A DNA stretch of 64,000 bases, taken from a phage. The notes under the pieces are model-generated. The model saw only the letters and a list, made by a program, of their open reading frames with translations. It made no database searches and was not told the DNA's origin. The position numbers and the translations under genes were made by a program. The stretch lies in assembly GCA_021469345.1 (NCBI GenBank), contig GCA_021469345.1_3049.1; one strand, 5' to 3'. Numbering within the stretch: position 1 is the stretch's first letter; every line of letters starts with the position of its first letter. This document shows positions 2,961-29,988 of the stretch, piece by piece.

Positions 2961-4168
<1,208 letters not shown>

Positions 4169-8390: not shown

Positions 8391-8678
8391 ATGTTTATGA
8401 CTACTTATTTTGATACCCGTAAAAATTTCTGTGAAGTGGTTTTCTCAAAGGCACCCAAAGACCTTCCTGCTCATTTGCAACCTACCAGTGAATCGATTAA
8501 AAATTATGTTAATGTAGTCTGCCCTTTAGAGTTCCGTACTGTAAATGGGCGCGATACTTTAGCTATCACTAAACTTAATCGTGAAATTGACATTGATCCT
8601 TCAATTGCGCGTGAAATTAACATTTCTGATATTGGCGGCGGTAATGTTAAATCGCACGGTTTTCAGATGAGGTTCTAA
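8391..8678 (+). CDS. hypothetical protein (30.x cluster)
   Basis: ORF-track start 8340 is TTG and spans the hairpin; ATG 8391 preceded by GAGGAAAA. Confidence 0.5.
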   Translation: MFMTTYFDTRKNFCEVVFSKAPKDLPAHLQPTSESIKNYVNVVCPLEFRTVNGRDTLAITKLNREIDIDPSIAREINISDIGGGNVKSHGFQMRF

Positions 8679-8875
8679 TGAAATTCTTTTTAGGTCAAAC
8701 TGTTGAATTAAAGGGAGTTGGTATACCTGGATTAATTTCTAAGGTTCTACCTCCATTTAAATGGAGCGATGTTCAAATAAAAGAGGCTTATATTGTTTCC
8801 TGGGTAGATGGAAATGAAGACCTTCGTATGGGTGATGAATTATCTCCTATTTACGGATTAAAGGAATTAGTATGA
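8678..8875 (+). CDS. hypothetical protein (30.x cluster)
   Basis: 65-aa ORF, ATGA-type overlap. Confidence 0.5.
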   Translation: MKFFLGQTVELKGVGIPGLISKVLPPFKWSDVQIKEAYIVSWVDGNEDLRMGDELSPIYGLKELV

Positions 8876-10365: not shown

Positions 10366-10634
10366 TGTTTGTTGTTCACACTATTTATGAAAATGAAGGT
10401 AATACTACACGTGATTACGGTCACGTAAATCAATTTTTTAGATGCAATCCAGAATTCCGATCTCAAAAAGACGAACGAATTTTTAAAAAATGCGTAGAGC
10501 AAGGTTTCATTTATATCAAGCACTGGATGCAAGGAAATAAAGTTAGAACTACATATCATAAGTCTTTGCCTGAGCTTAATGATGAATTGATTTATAATAG
10601 AGCTGTAAACCAAACTCTAAAGGATGAACAATGA
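10365..10634 (+). CDS. hypothetical protein (30.1 position)
   Basis: 89-aa ORF, ATG overlapping upstream stop. Confidence 0.5.
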   Translation: MFVVHTIYENEGNTTRDYGHVNQFFRCNPEFRSQKDERIFKKCVEQGFIYIKHWMQGNKVRTTYHKSLPELNDELIYNRAVNQTLKDEQ

Positions 10635-12094
10635 TTCTTAAAATTCTGAACGAAATAGCATCTATTGGTTCAACTAAGCAGAAGCAAGCAATTCTTGAAA
10701 AGAATAAAGATAATGAATTGCTTAAACGAGTATATCGTCTGACTTATTCTCGTGGGTTGCAGTATTATATTAAGAAATGGCCTAAACCTGGTATTGCTAC
10801 CCAGAGTTTTGGAATGTTGACTCTTACCGATATGCTTGACTTCATTGAATTCACATTAGCTACTCGGAAATTGACTGGAAATGCAGCAATTGAGGAATTA
10901 ACTGGATATATCACTGATGGTAAAAAAGATGATGTTGAAGTTTTGCGTCGGGTGATGATGCGAGACCTTGAATGTGGTGCTTCAGTATCTATTGCAAACA
11001 AAGTTTGGCCAGGTTTAATTCCTGAACAACCTCAAATGCTTGCAAGTTCTTATGATGAAAAAGGCATTAATAAGAATATCAAATTTCCAGCTTTTGCCCA
11101 GTTAAAAGCTGATGGAGCTCGGTGCTTTGCCGAAGTCAGAGGTGATGAATTAGATGATGTTCGTCTTTTATCACGAGCCGGTAATGAATATCTAGGATTA
11201 GATCTTCTTAAGGAAGAATTAATCAAAATGACCGCTGAAGCCCGCCAGATTCATCCAGAAGGCGTGTTAATTGATGGCGAATTGGTATACCATGAGCAAG
11301 TTAAAAAGGAACCAGAAGGCCTAGATTTTCTTTTTGATGCTCATCCTGAAAACAGTAAAGTTAAAGACTTCACAGAAGTAGCTGAATCACGTACTGCATC
11401 TAATGGCATCGCCAATAAATCTTTAAAGGGAACCATTTCTGAAAAAGAAGCTCAATGCATGAAGTTTCAGGTCTGGGATTATGTTCCGTTGGTAGAAATA
11501 TACGGTCTTCCTGCATTTCGTTTGAAATATGATGTACGTTTTTCTAAACTAGAACAAATGACATCAGGCTATGATAAAGTAATTTTAATTGAAAACCAGG
11601 TAGTAAATAACCTAGATGAAGCTAAGGTAATTTATAAAAAGTATATTGACCAAGGTCTTGAAGGTATTATTCTCAAAAATATCGATGGATTATGGGAAAA
11701 TGCTCGTTCAAAAAATCTCTATAAATTTAAAGAAGTAATTGATGTTGATTTAAAAATTGTAGGAATTTATCCTCACCGTAAAGACCCTACTAAAGCAGGT
11801 GGATTTATTCTTGAATCAGAGTGTGGAAAAATTAAGGTAAATGCTGGTTCAGGCTTAAAAGATAAAGCCGGTGTAAAATCGCATGAACTTGACCGTACTC
11901 GCATTATGGAAAACCAAAATTATTATATTGGAAAAATTCTAGAGTGCGAATGCAACGGTTGGTTAAAATCTGATGGCCGCACTGATTACGTTAAATTATT
12001 TCTTCCGATTGCGATTCGTTTACGCGAAGATAAAACTAAAGCTAATACATTTGAGGATGTATTTGGTGATTTTCATGAGGTAACTGGTCTATGA
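10631..12094 (+). CDS. 30: ATP-dependent DNA ligase
   Basis: 487 aa; adenylation motif KADGAR; same length as T4 gp30. Confidence 0.92.
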   Translation: MILKILNEIASIGSTKQKQAILEKNKDNELLKRVYRLTYSRGLQYYIKKWPKPGIATQSFGMLTLTDMLDFIEFTLATRKLTGNAAIEELTGYITDGKKDDVEVLRRVMMRDLECGASVSIANKVWPGLIPEQPQMLASSYDEKGINKNIKFPAFAQLKADGARCFAEVRGDELDDVRLLSRAGNEYLGLDLLKEELIKMTAEARQIHPEGVLIDGELVYHEQVKKEPEGLDFLFDAHPENSKVKDFTEVAESRTASNGIANKSLKGTISEKEAQCMKFQVWDYVPLVEIYGLPAFRLKYDVRFSKLEQMTSGYDKVILIENQVVNNLDEAKVIYKKYIDQGLEGIILKNIDGLWENARSKNLYKFKEVIDVDLKIVGIYPHRKDPTKAGGFILESECGKIKVNAGSGLKDKAGVKSHELDRTRIMENQNYYIGKILECECNGWLKSDGRTDYVKLFLPIAIRLREDKTKANTFEDVFGDFHEVTGL

Positions 12095-12279
12095 AAGCTT
12101 ACTTAGAAACAATTGTCATTGCTCAAAAAGAAGGTGGAGATGTTTCTACTTCTGTATCACAAGTCATTCTCGAATTTGTAGATGCATATGCTTATAATAA
12201 ATTCACAGAAACATTTGATGCCTATGAAAAAGGTCCAAAGTTTGAAATATACCGTACTCTCTTACCACTAGATTATTAA
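12091..12279 (+). CDS. hypothetical protein
   Basis: 62-aa ORF overlapping ligase stop, followed by a terminator. Confidence 0.45.
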   Translation: MKAYLETIVIAQKEGGDVSTSVSQVILEFVDAYAYNKFTETFDAYEKGPKFEIYRTLLPLDY

Positions 12280-12300
12280 AGGCCTTCGGGCCTTTAATTT
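12278..12300 (+). terminator. rho-independent terminator
   Basis: aaaggcc-ttcg-ggccttt hairpin then aatttt. Confidence 0.65.
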
Positions 12301-12308
12301 TATAAATA
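12301..12308 (+). promoter_or_regulatory. late promoter (TATAAATA) for alt
   Basis: Exact TATAAATA about 24 bp upstream of the alt start. Confidence 0.6.
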
Positions 12309-12331
12309 GAATAAACACTAGAGAGGTTATG

Positions 12332-14380
12332 ATGGAACTTATTACAGAATTATTTGATGAAGATACTACTCTTCCGATTACAAACTTAAATCCAAAGAAG
12401 AAAATACCACAAATTTTTTCAGTTCATGTTGATGACGCAATTGAACAACCAGGCTTTCGTTTATGTACCTATACATCTGGAGGTGATACTAATCGTGATT
12501 TAAAGATGGGCGATAAAATGATGCATATTGTTCCTTTTACATTAACCGCTAAAGGTTCAATTGCTAAATTGAAAGGTCTTGGTCCAAGCCCAATTAATTA
12601 TATCAATTCGGTTTTTACTGTTGCAATGCAAACAATGCGTCAGTATAAAATTGATGCCTGCATGCTTCGTATTCTTAAGTCTAAAACCGCCGGTCAAGCT
12701 CGACAAATTCAAGTTATTGCTGATAGACTTATCCGTAGTCGTTCAGGTGGCAGATACGTCCTTCTTAAGGAACTCTGGGATTATGATAAAAAGTATGCAT
12801 ATATTCTTATACATCGCAAAAATGTATCACTAGAAGACATTCCAGGGGTTCCGGAAATTAGTACCGAGCTCTTTACTAAAGTTGAATCGAAGGTCGGTGA
12901 TGTTTATATCAATAAAGATACTGGAGCTCAAGTAACTAAAAATGAGGCAATTGCAGCATCTATTGCACAAGAAAATGATAAACGTTCTGACCAAGCTGTA
13001 ATCGTTAAAGTTAAAATTTCCCGTAGAGCAATTGCACAAAGTCAGTCATTGGAATCTTCTAGATTTGAAACACCGATGTTTCAAAAATTTGAGGCTTCAG
13101 CGGCAGAATTAAATAAACCAGCGGACGCGCCTTTAATTTCTGATTCTAATGAATTAACGGTAATTTCTACTTCAGGATTTGCACTAGAGAATGCTCTTAG
13201 CAGTGTTACAGCTGGGATGGCATTCAGAGAAGCTTCTATAATTCCTGAAGATAAAGAATCCATTATTAATGCAGAAATAAAAAATAAAGCTTTAGAAAAA
13301 TTACGAAAAGAATCTATTACTTCAATAAAAACTTTAGAAACTATTGCTTCTATCGTCGATGATACTTTAGAAAAATATAAAGGTGCTTGGTTTGAAAGAA
13401 ATATTAACAAACATTCGCATTTAAATCAAGATGCTGCAAATGAGTTAGTACAAAATTCTTGGAATGCAATAAAAACAAAGATTATTCGAAGAGAATTACG
13501 TGGATATGCTCTTACCGCTGGATGGTCATTACATCCTATAGTCGAAAATAAAGATTCATCTAAATACACACCAGCGCAAAAACGCGGAATTCGTGAATAT
13601 GTAGGTTCAGGATATGTAGACATGAATAATGCTCTTTTGGGATTATATAATCCAGATGAGCGTACAAGTATTTTAACAGCATCTGAAATAGAACAAGCCA
13701 TTGATAATTTAGATTCAGCCTTTAAAAATGGTGAACGATTACCAAAAGGTATTACTTTGTATCGTTCACAACGAATGTTACCTTCAATATATGAAGCAAT
13801 GGTAAAAAATCGAGTTTTTTATTTTAGAAACTTTGTGTCAACATCATTATATCCAAATATTTTTGGTACTTGGATGACTGATTCATCTATAGGTGTTTTA
13901 CCAGACGAAAAGCGTCTAAGTGTTTCTATTGATAAAACTGATGAAGGACTAGTAAATTCTAGCGATAATTTAGTTGGAATTGGATGGGTTATTACTGGGG
14001 CTGATAAGGTCAATGTTGTTTTACCCGGTGGAAGTTTAGCGCCTTCAAATGAAATGGAAGTCATTTTGCCACGTGGATTAATGGTCAAAGTTAATAAAAT
14101 AACCGATGCATCTTACAACGATGGAACAGTTAGAACTAACAACAAGCTTATTCAAGCTGAAGTTATGACCACAGAAGAACTCACCGAATCGGTAATCTAT
14201 GACGGAGACCATTTAATGGAAACTGGTGAATTGGTTACAATGACAGGTGATATAGAAGACAGAGTTGACTTTGCATCATTTGTTTCATCAAATGTTAAAC
14301 AGAAAGTAGAATCATCTCTTGGAATTATTGCGTCTTGCATAGATATTGCAAACATGCCTTACAAGTTCGTTCAAGGATAA
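12332..14380 (+). CDS. alt: Alt ADP-ribosyltransferase (packaged, modifies host RNA polymerase)
   Basis: 682 aa from second ATG; ART-like R / S-T-S / E-x-E elements in the C-terminal half (LYRSQ..., FVSTSLY..., MEVILPRG); same length and position as T4 Alt. Confidence 0.88.
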   Translation: MELITELFDEDTTLPITNLNPKKKIPQIFSVHVDDAIEQPGFRLCTYTSGGDTNRDLKMGDKMMHIVPFTLTAKGSIAKLKGLGPSPINYINSVFTVAMQTMRQYKIDACMLRILKSKTAGQARQIQVIADRLIRSRSGGRYVLLKELWDYDKKYAYILIHRKNVSLEDIPGVPEISTELFTKVESKVGDVYINKDTGAQVTKNEAIAASIAQENDKRSDQAVIVKVKISRRAIAQSQSLESSRFETPMFQKFEASAAELNKPADAPLISDSNELTVISTSGFALENALSSVTAGMAFREASIIPEDKESIINAEIKNKALEKLRKESITSIKTLETIASIVDDTLEKYKGAWFERNINKHSHLNQDAANELVQNSWNAIKTKIIRRELRGYALTAGWSLHPIVENKDSSKYTPAQKRGIREYVGSGYVDMNNALLGLYNPDERTSILTASEIEQAIDNLDSAFKNGERLPKGITLYRSQRMLPSIYEAMVKNRVFYFRNFVSTSLYPNIFGTWMTDSSIGVLPDEKRLSVSIDKTDEGLVNSSDNLVGIGWVITGADKVNVVLPGGSLAPSNEMEVILPRGLMVKVNKITDASYNDGTVRTNNKLIQAEVMTTEELTESVIYDGDHLMETGELVTMTGDIEDRVDFASFVSSNVKQKVESSLGIIASCIDIANMPYKFVQG

Positions 14381-14383
14381 ATC

Positions 14384-14735
14384 ATGGAACTTATTACATA
14401 ATTATTTGACGGCGCTTCGGCGCCGGTTGTTAACTTAAATCCTAAGCATAAAATACCACAAATTTTTGCTATTCAAGCCGGCGAAGAAAGCGTGCTTCCT
14501 GGATTTAGATTTTGTACATACACCTCTGGCGGTGATACAGATAAAACGTTAAACCAGGCGACAAAATGATGCATATCGTAATGATAGGTGTTAATGAGAA
14601 ACTATCATTAGTTAAGCTTAAAAACTTGGGTGGAAATCCAATTGGTGTCATTAATGCTGTTTTGATACTGCTCTTCAAACAATGAAACAGTATAAAATCG
14701 ACGCATGCCTATTACGCGTACTAAAAAGTTCAAAA
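14384..14735 (+). pseudogene. degraded 5' fragment of an alt paralogue
   Basis: Nucleotide similarity to alt 12332-12720 (atggaacttattaca..., ...aaaataccacaaatttt..., ...ggtgatac...aaaatgatgcatat..., ...aaaatcgacgcatgcct...) with a stop after codon 5, frameshifts and deletions. Confidence 0.7.
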
Positions 14736-14740
14736 TGTGG

Positions 14741-14770
14741 TTTACAAGTCCCTCGTGTTGTGTTATAGTA
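14741..14770 (+). promoter_or_regulatory. T4-type early promoter (repeat copy)
   Basis: Same sequence as the promoter at 1532; upstream of ORF 14801. Confidence 0.5.
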
Positions 14771-14794
14771 GTCTTACTGACATAACATGAGGAA
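14741..14794. repeat. 54-bp perfect direct repeat, copy 2
   Basis: Identical to 1532-1585. Confidence 0.85.
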
Positions 14795-14800
14795 CACAAA

Positions 14801-15091
14801 ATGAAATCTTCTTTACGCTTTTTAGGTCAAGAACTTGTAGTTGAAGGCGTTATTCCTGCTGATAACGCTTTTAATGAAGCAGTTTATGATGAATTTATCA
14901 AAATTTTCGGAACAGATAAAAAGTTTGGAATTTTTCCTTCTGAAAATTTTTCAAAGCCAGAACAGACTGAAAGTATTTTTCAGGGTGTAGTAACAGGTAA
15001 ATTTGAGTCAGAAGCTCCGGTAAAAATTGAAGTTTATATTGAAGACAGTTTAGTTGCTTCAGTTGCTGCTTTTATTTCATTCCGTAAATAA
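14801..15091 (+). CDS. hypothetical protein (alt.-x region)
   Basis: 96-aa ORF with ATG and SD GAGGAA supplied by the repeated leader. Confidence 0.55.
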   Translation: MKSSLRFLGQELVVEGVIPADNAFNEAVYDEFIKIFGTDKKFGIFPSENFSKPEQTESIFQGVVTGKFESEAPVKIEVYIEDSLVASVAAFISFRK

Positions 15092-15095
15092 AAAC

Positions 15096-15117
15096 ATGGG
15101 GACCGAAAGGTCCCCAT
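15096..15117. terminator. bidirectional hairpin terminator
   Basis: atggggacc-gaaa-ggtccccat between convergent ORF 14801 (+) and gene 54 (-). Confidence 0.65.
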
Positions 15118-15119
15118 TG

Positions 15120-16085
15120 TTATATTGCTCCTAATATTTTACTTTGCGAATTGACAATTCCTGTCATAGTATTAATGTTTGAAATGCTTCCTGCAGTTCC
15201 CCCTAATCTACTGAGTCGTGAAAGCGAATTAGATAGTCCAGTAACACCTCCACTATTTCCGAGAACGCTTTGAATACCATTTATAGCAGCAGATTCAAGC
15301 CATTCAAGCGCAGCTTGCCTATCAACTGCTCCAGCCTGCATCACTCTATATGCAAAAGTAACATCAAATGTAGTTATTTGGTTATCTCCATCATATGATA
15401 GCTCAGGAGCGCTCACTGATATTGGAATGCATCCGGTGAACATCACCGCAGTATGAGGCAATCCATTGCGAGAATGAAGATTAACCTGAATATCTGCCTC
15501 GACATCTTGCGGCAAAGCACGCAGTCCAGTTACTGGGTCTTGAACAGAGTTAACCCAGTCTTGCATTGCACGATAGTTACAAGCTTCTGAATCCATTCTA
15601 AATGAAATAACCAAAGGGTCTAATTCTCTCCCAGTTATACGAATATTAGGAGAATTATAGTTCCAGTCAGTTTCATAGGATAATCTATTCTCTGGCATTT
15701 TTACAGAGTATATCATCAATCCAGATGAGTTATATGCCATGTTAAAGAAGTCAATTAAATATGTACCAACTGTAAATGAGCCTAATAAACTTTGAACTGT
15801 ACGTTGACTCATGGCACCAATAAGATATTTACTAACCCCTGATTTTCTTATCAGTTTTTGTGTGCCAGCTGTAATTAGCGTGGTAATTCCCTGATTAATA
15901 TCACCTTGAGTTAATCCTAACCAATTTGAATTTAGGCCCAAGTTATTATAAGAAAAGTTGCTAATTGAACTTATCAACGAAGAGCTTTTAGTTGATGGAG
16001 TTGTTGCAAAAACGCAGCTAAACATATTATTACGTTGGAAATCTGCGTTTATTGCTTGATTATTAAATTCCTCTAAAGAATACAT
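15120..16085 (-). CDS. 54: baseplate-tail tube initiator gp54
   Basis: 321 aa; matches remembered T4 gp54; operon order 51-27-28-29-48-54. Confidence 0.88.
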   Translation of the reverse strand: MYSLEEFNNQAINADFQRNNMFSCVFATTPSTKSSSLISSISNFSYNNLGLNSNWLGLTQGDINQGITTLITAGTQKLIRKSGVSKYLIGAMSQRTVQSLLGSFTVGTYLIDFFNMAYNSSGLMIYSVKMPENRLSYETDWNYNSPNIRITGRELDPLVISFRMDSEACNYRAMQDWVNSVQDPVTGLRALPQDVEADIQVNLHSRNGLPHTAVMFTGCIPISVSAPELSYDGDNQITTFDVTFAYRVMQAGAVDRQAALEWLESAAINGIQSVLGNSGGVTGLSNSLSRLSRLGGTAGSISNINTMTGIVNSQSKILGAI

Positions 16086-27600: not shown

Positions 27601-28605
27601 ATGTTTAAAAAGTATAGCAGTCTTGAAAATCATTACAACTCTAAATTTATTGAAAAACTTTATAGCCTGGGATTGACTGGCGGCGAATGGGTAGCTCGTG
27701 AAAAAATTCATGGAACAAACTTTTCTTTGATTATTGAGCGTGATAAAGTAACTTGCGCTAAACGTACTGGACCGATTCTTCCTGCTGAAGATTTCTTTGG
27801 GTATGAAATTATTCTAAAGAATTACGCTGATTCCATTAAAGCAGTACAAGATATTATGGAAACTTCAGCGGTTGTATCTTATCAAGTTTTTGGCGAATTC
27901 GCTGGACCTGGCATTCAGAAGAATGTTGATTATGGTGATAAAGATTTTTATGTATTTGACATTATTGTCACTACAGAAAGTGGTGATGTAACTTATGTTG
28001 ATGATTACATGATGGAATCGTTTTGTAATTCATTTGGGTTTAAAATCGCTCCACTTTTGGGTCGTGGTAAATTTGAAGATCTTATTAAACTTCCAAATGA
28101 TTTGGATTCTGTTGTTCCGTCTTATAATTTTACCGTAGATAATGCAGGTTTAATTGACGCTAACAAATGTGTTTGGAAAGCTGAAGCAAAAGGCGAAGTA
28201 TTTACCGCTGAAGGATATGTATTGAAACCTTGTTATCCTTCTTGGATGCCTAATGGCAATCGTGTAGCAATTAAATGCAAGAACTCTAAATTTAGCGAAA
28301 AGAAAAAGTCTGATAAGCCTATTAAAGCTAAAGTTGAGCTATCAGAAGCTGATAATAAATTGCTGGGAATTTTAGCTTGTTACGTTACACTGAACCGGGT
28401 AAATAACGTTATTTCTAAAATTGGCGAAATTGGTCCTAAAGATTTTGGAAAGGTGATGGGACTAACTGTTCAAGATATTTTGGAAGAAACTTCTCGTGAA
28501 GGTATTACTCTAACTCAAGCGGATAATCCTTCTTTGATTAAAAAGGAATTAGTTAAAATGGTACAAGATGTACTTCGTCCGGCTTGGATTGAATTGGTAA
28601 GTTAA
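27601..28605 (+). CDS. rnlB: RNA ligase 2
   Basis: 334 aa; nucleotidyltransferase lysine motif KIHGTN; same length as T4 Rnl2. Confidence 0.9.
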
Positions 28606-28610
28606 ATAAA

Positions 28611-28635
28611 AAGGGACCGAAAGGTCCCTTTGTTT
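28611..28635. terminator. bidirectional hairpin terminator
   Basis: aagggacc-gaaa-ggtccctt + T-run between convergent rnlB (+) and gene 24 (-). Confidence 0.7.
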
Positions 28636-29918: not shown

Positions 29919-29945
29919 TGCGCTTTCCTTTTGGTTTATATGATT

Positions 29946-29953
29946 TATTTATA
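29946..29953 (-). promoter_or_regulatory. late promoter for gene 24
   Basis: TATTTATA on plus strand about 28 bp upstream of the gene 24 start. Confidence 0.6.
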
Positions 29954-29967
29954 CCATAAAAACAACT

Positions 29968-29988
29968 AAAGGGACCCGAAGGTCCCTT
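29968..29988 (-). terminator. rho-independent terminator after gene 23
   Basis: aagggacc-cgaa-ggtccctt hairpin; U-rich on the minus strand after the stem. Confidence 0.7.

Follow-up and report, generated by a model that had tools for sequence, protein, structure and literature searches.

The window analyzed here, meaning the whole stretch of 64,000 nucleotides, belongs to a T4-type phage of the genus Tequatrovirus, and over the 12 kb around the feature under study, identity is 97 to 98% with several Tequatrovirus genomes and 97.0% with T4. The gene order in this region is DNA ligase, alt.1, alt, a short stub, alt.-3, and genes 54 and 48 on the minus strand, and it matches the order in T4 exactly (Table 1). 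The alt gene is intact, and its product carries the Pfam domain PF03496 (ADPrib_exo_Tox; residues 374 to 614, E value of 3e-34). By its match to the consensus, the element upstream of alt would be the T4 late promoter for this gene, and the first terminator-like site on the plus strand downstream of alt is the hairpin that separates alt.-3 from gene 54. Because the late promoter lies upstream of alt and this first terminator lies downstream of the stub, the stub is probably carried on the late alt RNA. Hairpins of the form GGGACC-GAAA/CGAA-GGTCCC recur at gene ends in the window (15068 to 15114, 28582 to 28628, and 29940 to 29986), and the copy at 15096 to 15117 scores as a terminator.

Table 1. 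Features of the alt region in the window, with the basis on which each was assigned
Feature	Position	Strand	Basis or remark
DNA ligase	10631-12094		ORF map
alt.1	12091-12279		ORF map
Late-promoter consensus match, TATAAATA	12301-12308	+	Upstream of alt, after the alt.1 terminator hairpin; read from the sequence
alt, intact Alt ADP-ribosyltransferase, 682 aa from the second ATG	12332-14380	+	ORF; syntenic with T4 alt
Pseudogene stub of a second alt paralog (T4 alt.-1 plus alt.-2)	14384-14739	+	Nucleotide and amino acid identity to RB68 alt2
Nonsense codon TAA at codon 6	14399-14401	+	GAA in T4 and in intact alleles
CGGCGC-UUCG-GCGCCG hairpin (6-bp GC stem, UUCG tetraloop)	14410-14425	+	Minimum-free-energy and centroid folds
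Run of four A residues, -1 frameshift	14543-14546	+	Five A residues in intact alleles; divides T4 alt.-1 from alt.-2
Run of four T residues, second -1 frameshift	14660-14663	+	Five T residues in other alleles; shortens the alt.-2 ORF from 67 to 39 aa
CTAAAAAGT, one remaining copy of the 9-bp direct repeat at the junction	14721-14729	+	Comparison with RB68
Last 10 nucleotides of alt2, TCAAAATGTGG	14730-14739	+	Old stop TAG reads TGG here
54-bp cassette for alt.-3 (early promoter, 5' untranslated region, Shine-Dalgarno sequence)	14740-14793	+	Exact repeat of 1532-1585 upstream of alc
alt.-3, 96 aa, DUF5498	14801-15091	+	Pfam PF17602, E value of 1.4e-64; T4 annotation
Bidirectional terminator hairpin between alt.-3 and gene 54	15096-15117	.	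Terminator scan

Several other observations on this region can be reported briefly. Alt is a mosaic between Tequatroviruses: the proteins encoded by alt in the window (12332 to 14380, 682 aa) and in phage RB68 (2904 to 4997 of our sequence L005, 697 aa) are 99 to 100% identical over the first ~200 alignment columns, 29% identical around columns 300 to 400, and 96% identical at the C terminus. Two mechanically called minus-strand ORFs with TTG starts overlap the stub (14505 to 14678, 57 aa, and 14608 to 14799, 63 aa), and none of the relatives' annotation tables inspected contained a minus-strand gene inside it. An Rfam scan of 12000 to 15300 at an E value of ≤1 returned only three chance-level matches, none of them within the stub. 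The start of alt.-3 (14818 to 14851) and the start of the ORF at 8678 to 8875 (8686 to 8719) share a 34-nucleotide direct repeat with 71% identity. Paralogy of the two genes was rejected, as the protein comparison was not significant (E value of 0.047 over 15 residues), and the repeat is probably due to chance or to a very short shared N-terminal motif.

The stub begins with an ATG at 14384 to 14386, 3 nucleotides past the alt stop codon (14378 to 14380), and resembles the start of alt itself. The local nucleotide alignment of 14384 to 14735 with 12332 to 12760 scored 114, compared to 20.0 ± 2.6 (maximum of 31) in 200 shuffles, with 231 of 341 columns identical and 27 gap columns, giving ~74% identity over the aligned bases. 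This formal alignment bears out the initial annotation, made from the sequence, that the ~350 bp after alt repeat its start. A repeat finder independently returned a 116-nucleotide ungapped direct repeat with 72% identity (12374 to 12489 and 14423 to 14538). After repair of the frame, the stub peptide was 62% identical to Alt residues 1 to 117 (E value of 7e-49) and matched positions 2 to 119 of phrog_802 (E value of 1.1e-47). A Pfam search with the repaired 118-aa translation gave no match, and the ADP-ribosyltransferase domain is absent from it. The stop codon after 5 codons and the frame breaks that had been noticed at the outset were likewise recovered, as one nonsense codon and two -1 frame breaks, the latter defined against intact relatives (Table 1). 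No intact ORF was found on the plus strand within the stub, the longest entry in the ORF list being 39 aa, and the version in the window is among the most decayed that we saw.

The position of the stub is occupied by a complete gene in other phages. When the repaired stub peptide was used as a tblastn query, 414 records fell in the 90 to 95% identity band, and among the matches listed the similarity was uninterrupted and lay within genes annotated as Alt-like ADP-ribosyltransferases. In RB68 and Aplg8, a 685-aa ORF extends from 3 nucleotides after the alt stop to 60 nucleotides before alt.-3, and an intact 685-aa gene is found at this position also in two IMG/VR contigs. The gene, here called alt2, appears as RB68_196 and as Aplg8 gp189, and it is labeled "alt.-2" in RB51 and RB68. 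The intact protein contains PF03496 (residues 416 to 620, E value of 6.7e-20) and matches phrog_802, the Alt PHROG, from end to end; when its translation is read by eye, the R, S-T-S, and E-x-E motifs can be seen as TLYRGQ, FVSTSL, and EAEVILPRG. Over its full length, it is 43 to 45% identical to Alt, in agreement with the 43.29% given for the two Alt paralogs of phages 6phi13 and SHFML-11 (PMC13600099). The initial statement that T4-like phages have several alt paralogs holds, with intact alt2 in RB68, Aplg8, and others.

Compared with these genes, the stub is considerably closer to alt2 than to its own alt. It shares 95 to 97% of its nucleotides with RB68 alt2 and 95% of its amino acids with alt2 residues 1 to 116, against 62% amino acid and ~74% nucleotide identity to alt. 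Because the stub is 95 to 97% identical to an intact gene, its divergence from alt reflects an ancient divergence between paralogs and not decay. The initial annotation had ascribed this divergence to decay, but nearly all of the 26% nucleotide difference is already there in alt2, and true decay amounts to a few point lesions.

The alignment of the window with RB68 shows where the rest of the gene was lost. It consists of four collinear blocks, of which three cover the 5' 378 nucleotides with two single-base gaps between them, and after a gap of 1,699 nucleotides the fourth block, 97.8% identical, runs through the alt2 tail and the promoter into alt.-3. In RB68, the gap is flanked by two perfect copies of CTAAAAAGT (L005, positions 5340 and 7039), one at codons 113 to 115 of alt2 and the other 10 nucleotides before its stop codon. 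Since perfect repeats bound the gap and one copy is left in the window, a deletion between short direct repeats is indicated, and the stub appears to have been made by a base-exact 1,699-bp deletion between the two 9-bp CTAAAAAGT repeats. Judged from the junction, the deletion most likely came about by replication slippage or by microhomology-mediated recombination. T4 and the window have the same deletion junction, which is identical in 15 of the 16 other stub alleles, F25 having one A fewer in the run. What is left of alt2 comprises codons 1 to 115 followed by its last 10 nucleotides with the old stop, and the catalytic domain (residues 416 to 620) lies inside the deleted 1,699 bp. Because 1,699 leaves a remainder of 1 on division by three, the stub frame runs into the promoter. 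At the same place, RB68 reads ...ATGTCTAAAAAGTTCAAAATGTAG and then the promoter, and the old alt2 stop is TAG in all relatives examined. Position 14738 of the window, two bases upstream of the promoter cassette, is a G, compared to an A in all 20 other stub and intact alleles, which turns this TAG into TGG.

The distribution of the two states was assessed with 100-nucleotide probes across the deletion junction and across the intact 5' breakpoint, at a coverage of ≥80%. The intact breakpoint is spanned by 363 phage records (including T2, RB51, AR1, and RB68) and the deletion junction by 90, both counts including RefSeq/GenBank duplicates and several T4 laboratory strains. By these counts, the intact tandem alt-alt2 pair appears to be the common state and the condition of T4 that of a minority. 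The tandem pair is probably also older than the genus, since the more distant T4-like contigs L013 and L014 also have a 707-aa second alt with an alt.-3 homolog downstream of it. In another contig (L012; IMGVR_UViG_2974573174_000001, position 3001 onward), the second alt ORF ends at 392 aa, compared to 707 aa in L013 and L014, and homologous sequence, read by eye, appears to go on past the stop; the second paralog may have been disrupted independently in this contig.

Directly downstream of the stub lies the promoter cassette of alt.-3, an exact copy of the sequence at 1532 to 1585, 13.2 kb away, with zero such repeats expected by chance. Its -35 element (TTTACA, 14741 to 14746) and -10 element (TATAGT, 14764 to 14769) are separated by a spacer of 17 and together make 10 of 12 matches to the consensus, with a TG, and a promoter at this site is annotated in phage Lutter. 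In RB68, the 54-bp promoter comes directly after the intact alt2 stop codon, and alt.-3 is the downstream neighbor of intact alt2 and of the stub alike. The initial annotation had the 3' side of the remnant overwritten by this repeat, which does not agree with its place next to the intact stop in RB68 or with the 10 nucleotides of alt2 that remain before it in the window. Overwriting by the promoter and promoter-mediated recombination were both rejected as the origin of the stub, the promoter being native next to intact alt2 and the junction lying upstream of it. In T4-type phages, modular exchange of the PeSL type consists of shuffling mediated by promoter cassettes, and its breakpoint would fall on the repeated promoter; here, the CTAAAAAGT copy ends 10 nucleotides before the 54-bp repeat. 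The cassette copies of alc and alt.-3 covary: the RB68 pair carries CCCTCATG and the window pair CCCTCGTG, while the T4 copies differ at 1 nucleotide. The pattern suggests that the two genes share a regulatory cassette that undergoes concerted evolution or gene conversion.

Comparison of alleles gives a view of what happened to the stub after the deletion. The comparison covered 4 intact alleles and 17 stub alleles, with the window and T4 among the latter; the IMG/VR scan with the repaired stub peptide provided 8 loci, and 9 further stub alleles were added from a phage collection. The TAA at codon 6 is present in 10 of the 17 stub alleles, the other 7 and all 4 intact alleles having GAA. The shortening of the A run from five to four residues is found in 15 of 17, with five residues kept in fPS-2, fPS-90, and all intact alleles, while the shortening of the T run from five to four is limited among the stub alleles to the window and IME537, which annotates the same 120-nucleotide ORF. 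The F1 stub has a 9-bp deletion. Thus counted, every one of the 17 stubs carries at least one disabling lesion besides the large deletion, in differing combinations, and none of the 4 intact alleles has any. The ratio of synonymous to nonsynonymous polymorphic sites in the first 345 nucleotides was 22:0 in the intact alleles, of which there were only four, and 15:15 in the stubs (Fisher P = 3.7e-5). On the strength of these allele sequences, we take the lesions to have arisen independently after the deletion, with constraint relaxed.

The history of the stub alleles is not a simple one. No nucleotide difference in the comparison sets all stub alleles apart from all intact ones, the stub is found beside both the 682-aa and the 697-aa types of alt, and the lesion combinations (GAA with four A residues, TAA with four, and TAA with five) are not tree-like. 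Such a pattern requires either recombination, which is widespread among T-even phages, or mutations or deletions that recur. Because there are no fixed differences and the stub occurs beside two alt types, the deletion need not have had a single origin, and recombination or recurrent deletion at the CTAAAAAGT repeat is possible. The "alt.-2" ORF of 64 to 74 aa is open in 15 of the 17 stub alleles and the 61-aa "alt.-1" ORF, which overlaps it by ATGA, in 7, T4 among them. Expression of small peptides in phages with open alt.-1 and alt.-2 ORFs is possible, and the open frames weigh little either way because the alleles have diverged by only ~2 to 4%.

The hairpin in the stub begins 30 nucleotides after the alt stop codon and is identical in all 21 alleles (17 stub and 4 intact). 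In each of the 4 intact alleles, its DNA is coding sequence within D-G-A-S-A-P-V. The initial annotation had described a GC hairpin inserted into the decayed copy, which cannot be upheld for an element that is already part of the coding sequence of every intact alt2 allele examined. A role as an intrinsic terminator was rejected: there is no T tract, the tail reads GTTGTTAACTT, and the site is not listed in the terminator scan. The regional fold around it is unremarkable (z = -0.87). There are 4 polymorphic sites in the 10 nucleotides just 3' of the hairpin, but the lack of variation in its 16 nucleotides is not significant, as only 1 to 1.4 variable sites would be expected there. The UUCG hairpin may be a stabilizer or a partial terminator or attenuator of the late alt RNA.

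Taken together, positions 14384 to 14739 are very probably the pseudogene left when an internal deletion cut alt2, a second Alt-type ADP-ribosyltransferase gene in tandem with alt, and later decay set in. The initial description of a decayed tandem alt duplicate is correct in that the sequence is what remains, nonfunctional, of the 5' end of another alt-type gene in tandem, and it needs revision in that the remnant is not a copy of the adjacent alt, given the 95 to 97% identity to alt2. The ancestral order would have been alt, alt2 (685 aa), the early promoter, and alt.-3, an arrangement kept in most Tequatroviruses. In the lineage of T4 and the window, 1,699 bp would have been lost between the CTAAAAAGT repeats, removing everything past residue 115, including the catalytic domain, and shifting the frame. 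Independent lesions would then have followed: the change of GAA to TAA at codon 6, the -1 slip in the run of five A residues that gave the split into "alt.-1" and "alt.-2" seen in T4, and one more -1 slip, in the run of five T residues, in the window and IME537. The early promoter of alt.-3 would have stayed in its original place throughout. In the window, the stub would no longer code for anything and most likely persists as untranslated RNA on the late alt transcript.

Other explanations have to be weighed against this one. It is unlikely that the stub is kept for a function, either through Alt.-1 and Alt.-2 peptides (N-terminal Alt fragments, possibly capsid targeting by way of MELITE...) or through the hairpin as a 3' stabilizer or attenuator of the alt mRNA. 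The open alt.-1 and alt.-2 frames with their ATGA overlap in T4 and 6 other alleles would fit such a role, yet both ORFs are broken in the window, the TAA is present in 10 of 17 alleles, and nonsynonymous sites equal synonymous ones in the stubs. Likewise, the hairpin is invariant in 21 alleles despite the 4 polymorphic sites in the next 10 nucleotides and appears in both the minimum-free-energy and the centroid structure, but invariance over 16 nucleotides is not significant, the T tract is missing, and the z score of the fold is only -0.87. We regard as quite improbable a related scenario in which the loss of alt2 is nonneutral, with the CTAAAAAGT repeats as a hotspot of recurrent deletion (owing to sensing by host defenses or to a cost on some hosts) and the stub kept for a UUCG hairpin that sets the 3' end or stability of the late alt mRNA. 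A recurrent origin as such stays compatible with the data, because no differences are fixed between stub and intact alleles and the stub lies beside two types of alt.

It is very unlikely that the homopolymer frame breaks are assembly or sequencing errors and that the locus truly encodes an alt.-2 ORF like that of T4. The T-run lesion is indeed homopolymeric and rare (2 of 17 alleles), but the same run of four T residues is found in the independent genome IME537, and the nonsense codon, the shortened A run, and the 1,699-bp deletion recur in many independent records; even with the T run in error, the locus would still be a shortened stub. Finally, we can hardly credit a duplication of only the first ~350 bp of the adjacent alt, with decay to ~74% identity, insertion of the hairpin, and overwriting of the 3' end by a mobile 54-bp repeat, which would account for the significant similarity to the 5' end of alt, for the end of that homology just a few bases ahead of a sequence that has an exact second copy 13.2 kb away, and for the mention of a duplicated "first part of gene alt" in the T4 GenBank note, but which is contradicted by a full-length gene 95 to 97% identical to the stub at the same site in most relatives, by the presence of the hairpin and nearly all the differences from alt in intact alt2, and by a promoter that adjoins the intact alt2 stop, with 10 nucleotides of the alt2 3' end between the junction and the promoter.

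The feature that we describe, a shortened and decayed second alt gene, is already known, being annotated in T4 as alt.-1 and alt.-2, and it is real but ordinary. The present analysis adds the position of the deletion junction to the base and identifies the intact paralog as the majority state. The importance of this is slight, and its practical value is for annotation: the T4 proteins "Alt.-1" and "Alt.-2" and the families phrog_23015 and phrog_15247 ("unknown function") are pieces of a shortened gene and should be treated as a pseudogene. It also means that T4, the reference phage, lacks a second packaged-type ADP-ribosyltransferase that is encoded in about four-fifths of the sequenced Tequatrovirus records, and host-takeover biology that is extrapolated from T4 to its relatives should allow for the missing second Alt. 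The junction itself is a tidy natural example of a deletion between 9-bp direct repeats.

The closest known system is the alt.-1 and alt.-2 pair of T4 (NC_000866, T4p199 and T4p198, positions 123265 to 123450 and 123065 to 123268; phrog_23015 and phrog_15247), which has the same position, deletion junction, and A-run frameshift as the stub in the window. Comparison with the alt.-1/-2/-3 region of T4, proposed in the initial annotation, led to this same, already annotated locus, and a five-way alignment of the window stub with T4 and three close relatives gave 98% mean column identity. The T4 RefSeq record traces the two ORFs jointly to an old duplication of the first part of alt that acquired a stop codon, and Nolan et al. 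(2006, PMC1524935) list both as paralogous duplications of alt. T4 differs from the window in that both ORFs are still open (61 and 67 aa, with the ATGA overlap), whereas the window has the TAA at codon 6 and an extra -1 shift that leaves 39 aa; the old alt2 stop is TAG in T4 and TGG in the window. The profiles phrog_23015 (61 aa) and phrog_15247 (67 aa) correspond to alt2 residues 1 to 56 and 62 to 117 and are built on the Alt.-1 and Alt.-2 fragments. The full-length alt2 of Tequatroviruses (RB68, Aplg8, and 6phi13/SHFML-11) is orthologous to the stub over the first 115 codons and like it in the start, the hairpin-encoding segment, the last 10 nucleotides, and the downstream promoter, but it encodes 685 aa with PF03496, whereas the stub is without the 1,699 bp and cannot encode an enzyme.

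The Alt protein of T4 is an NAD+:arginine ADP-ribosyltransferase that is packaged and then injected, and its target is the alpha subunit of RNA polymerase. Its N-terminal 117 residues are homologous to the stub (62%), with the start MELITELFD in common, but it is related to the stub as a paralog and not as the source of a copy, and the stub is without the catalytic domain. The junction can be set beside other deletions between short direct repeats in T4, such as those with the classical rII end points. In both cases, the end points lie in a perfect direct repeat (9 bp here) of which one copy is kept. The difference is that the rII-type deletions are laboratory mutants, whereas the stub deletion is a natural one, present in about one-fifth of the Tequatrovirus records.
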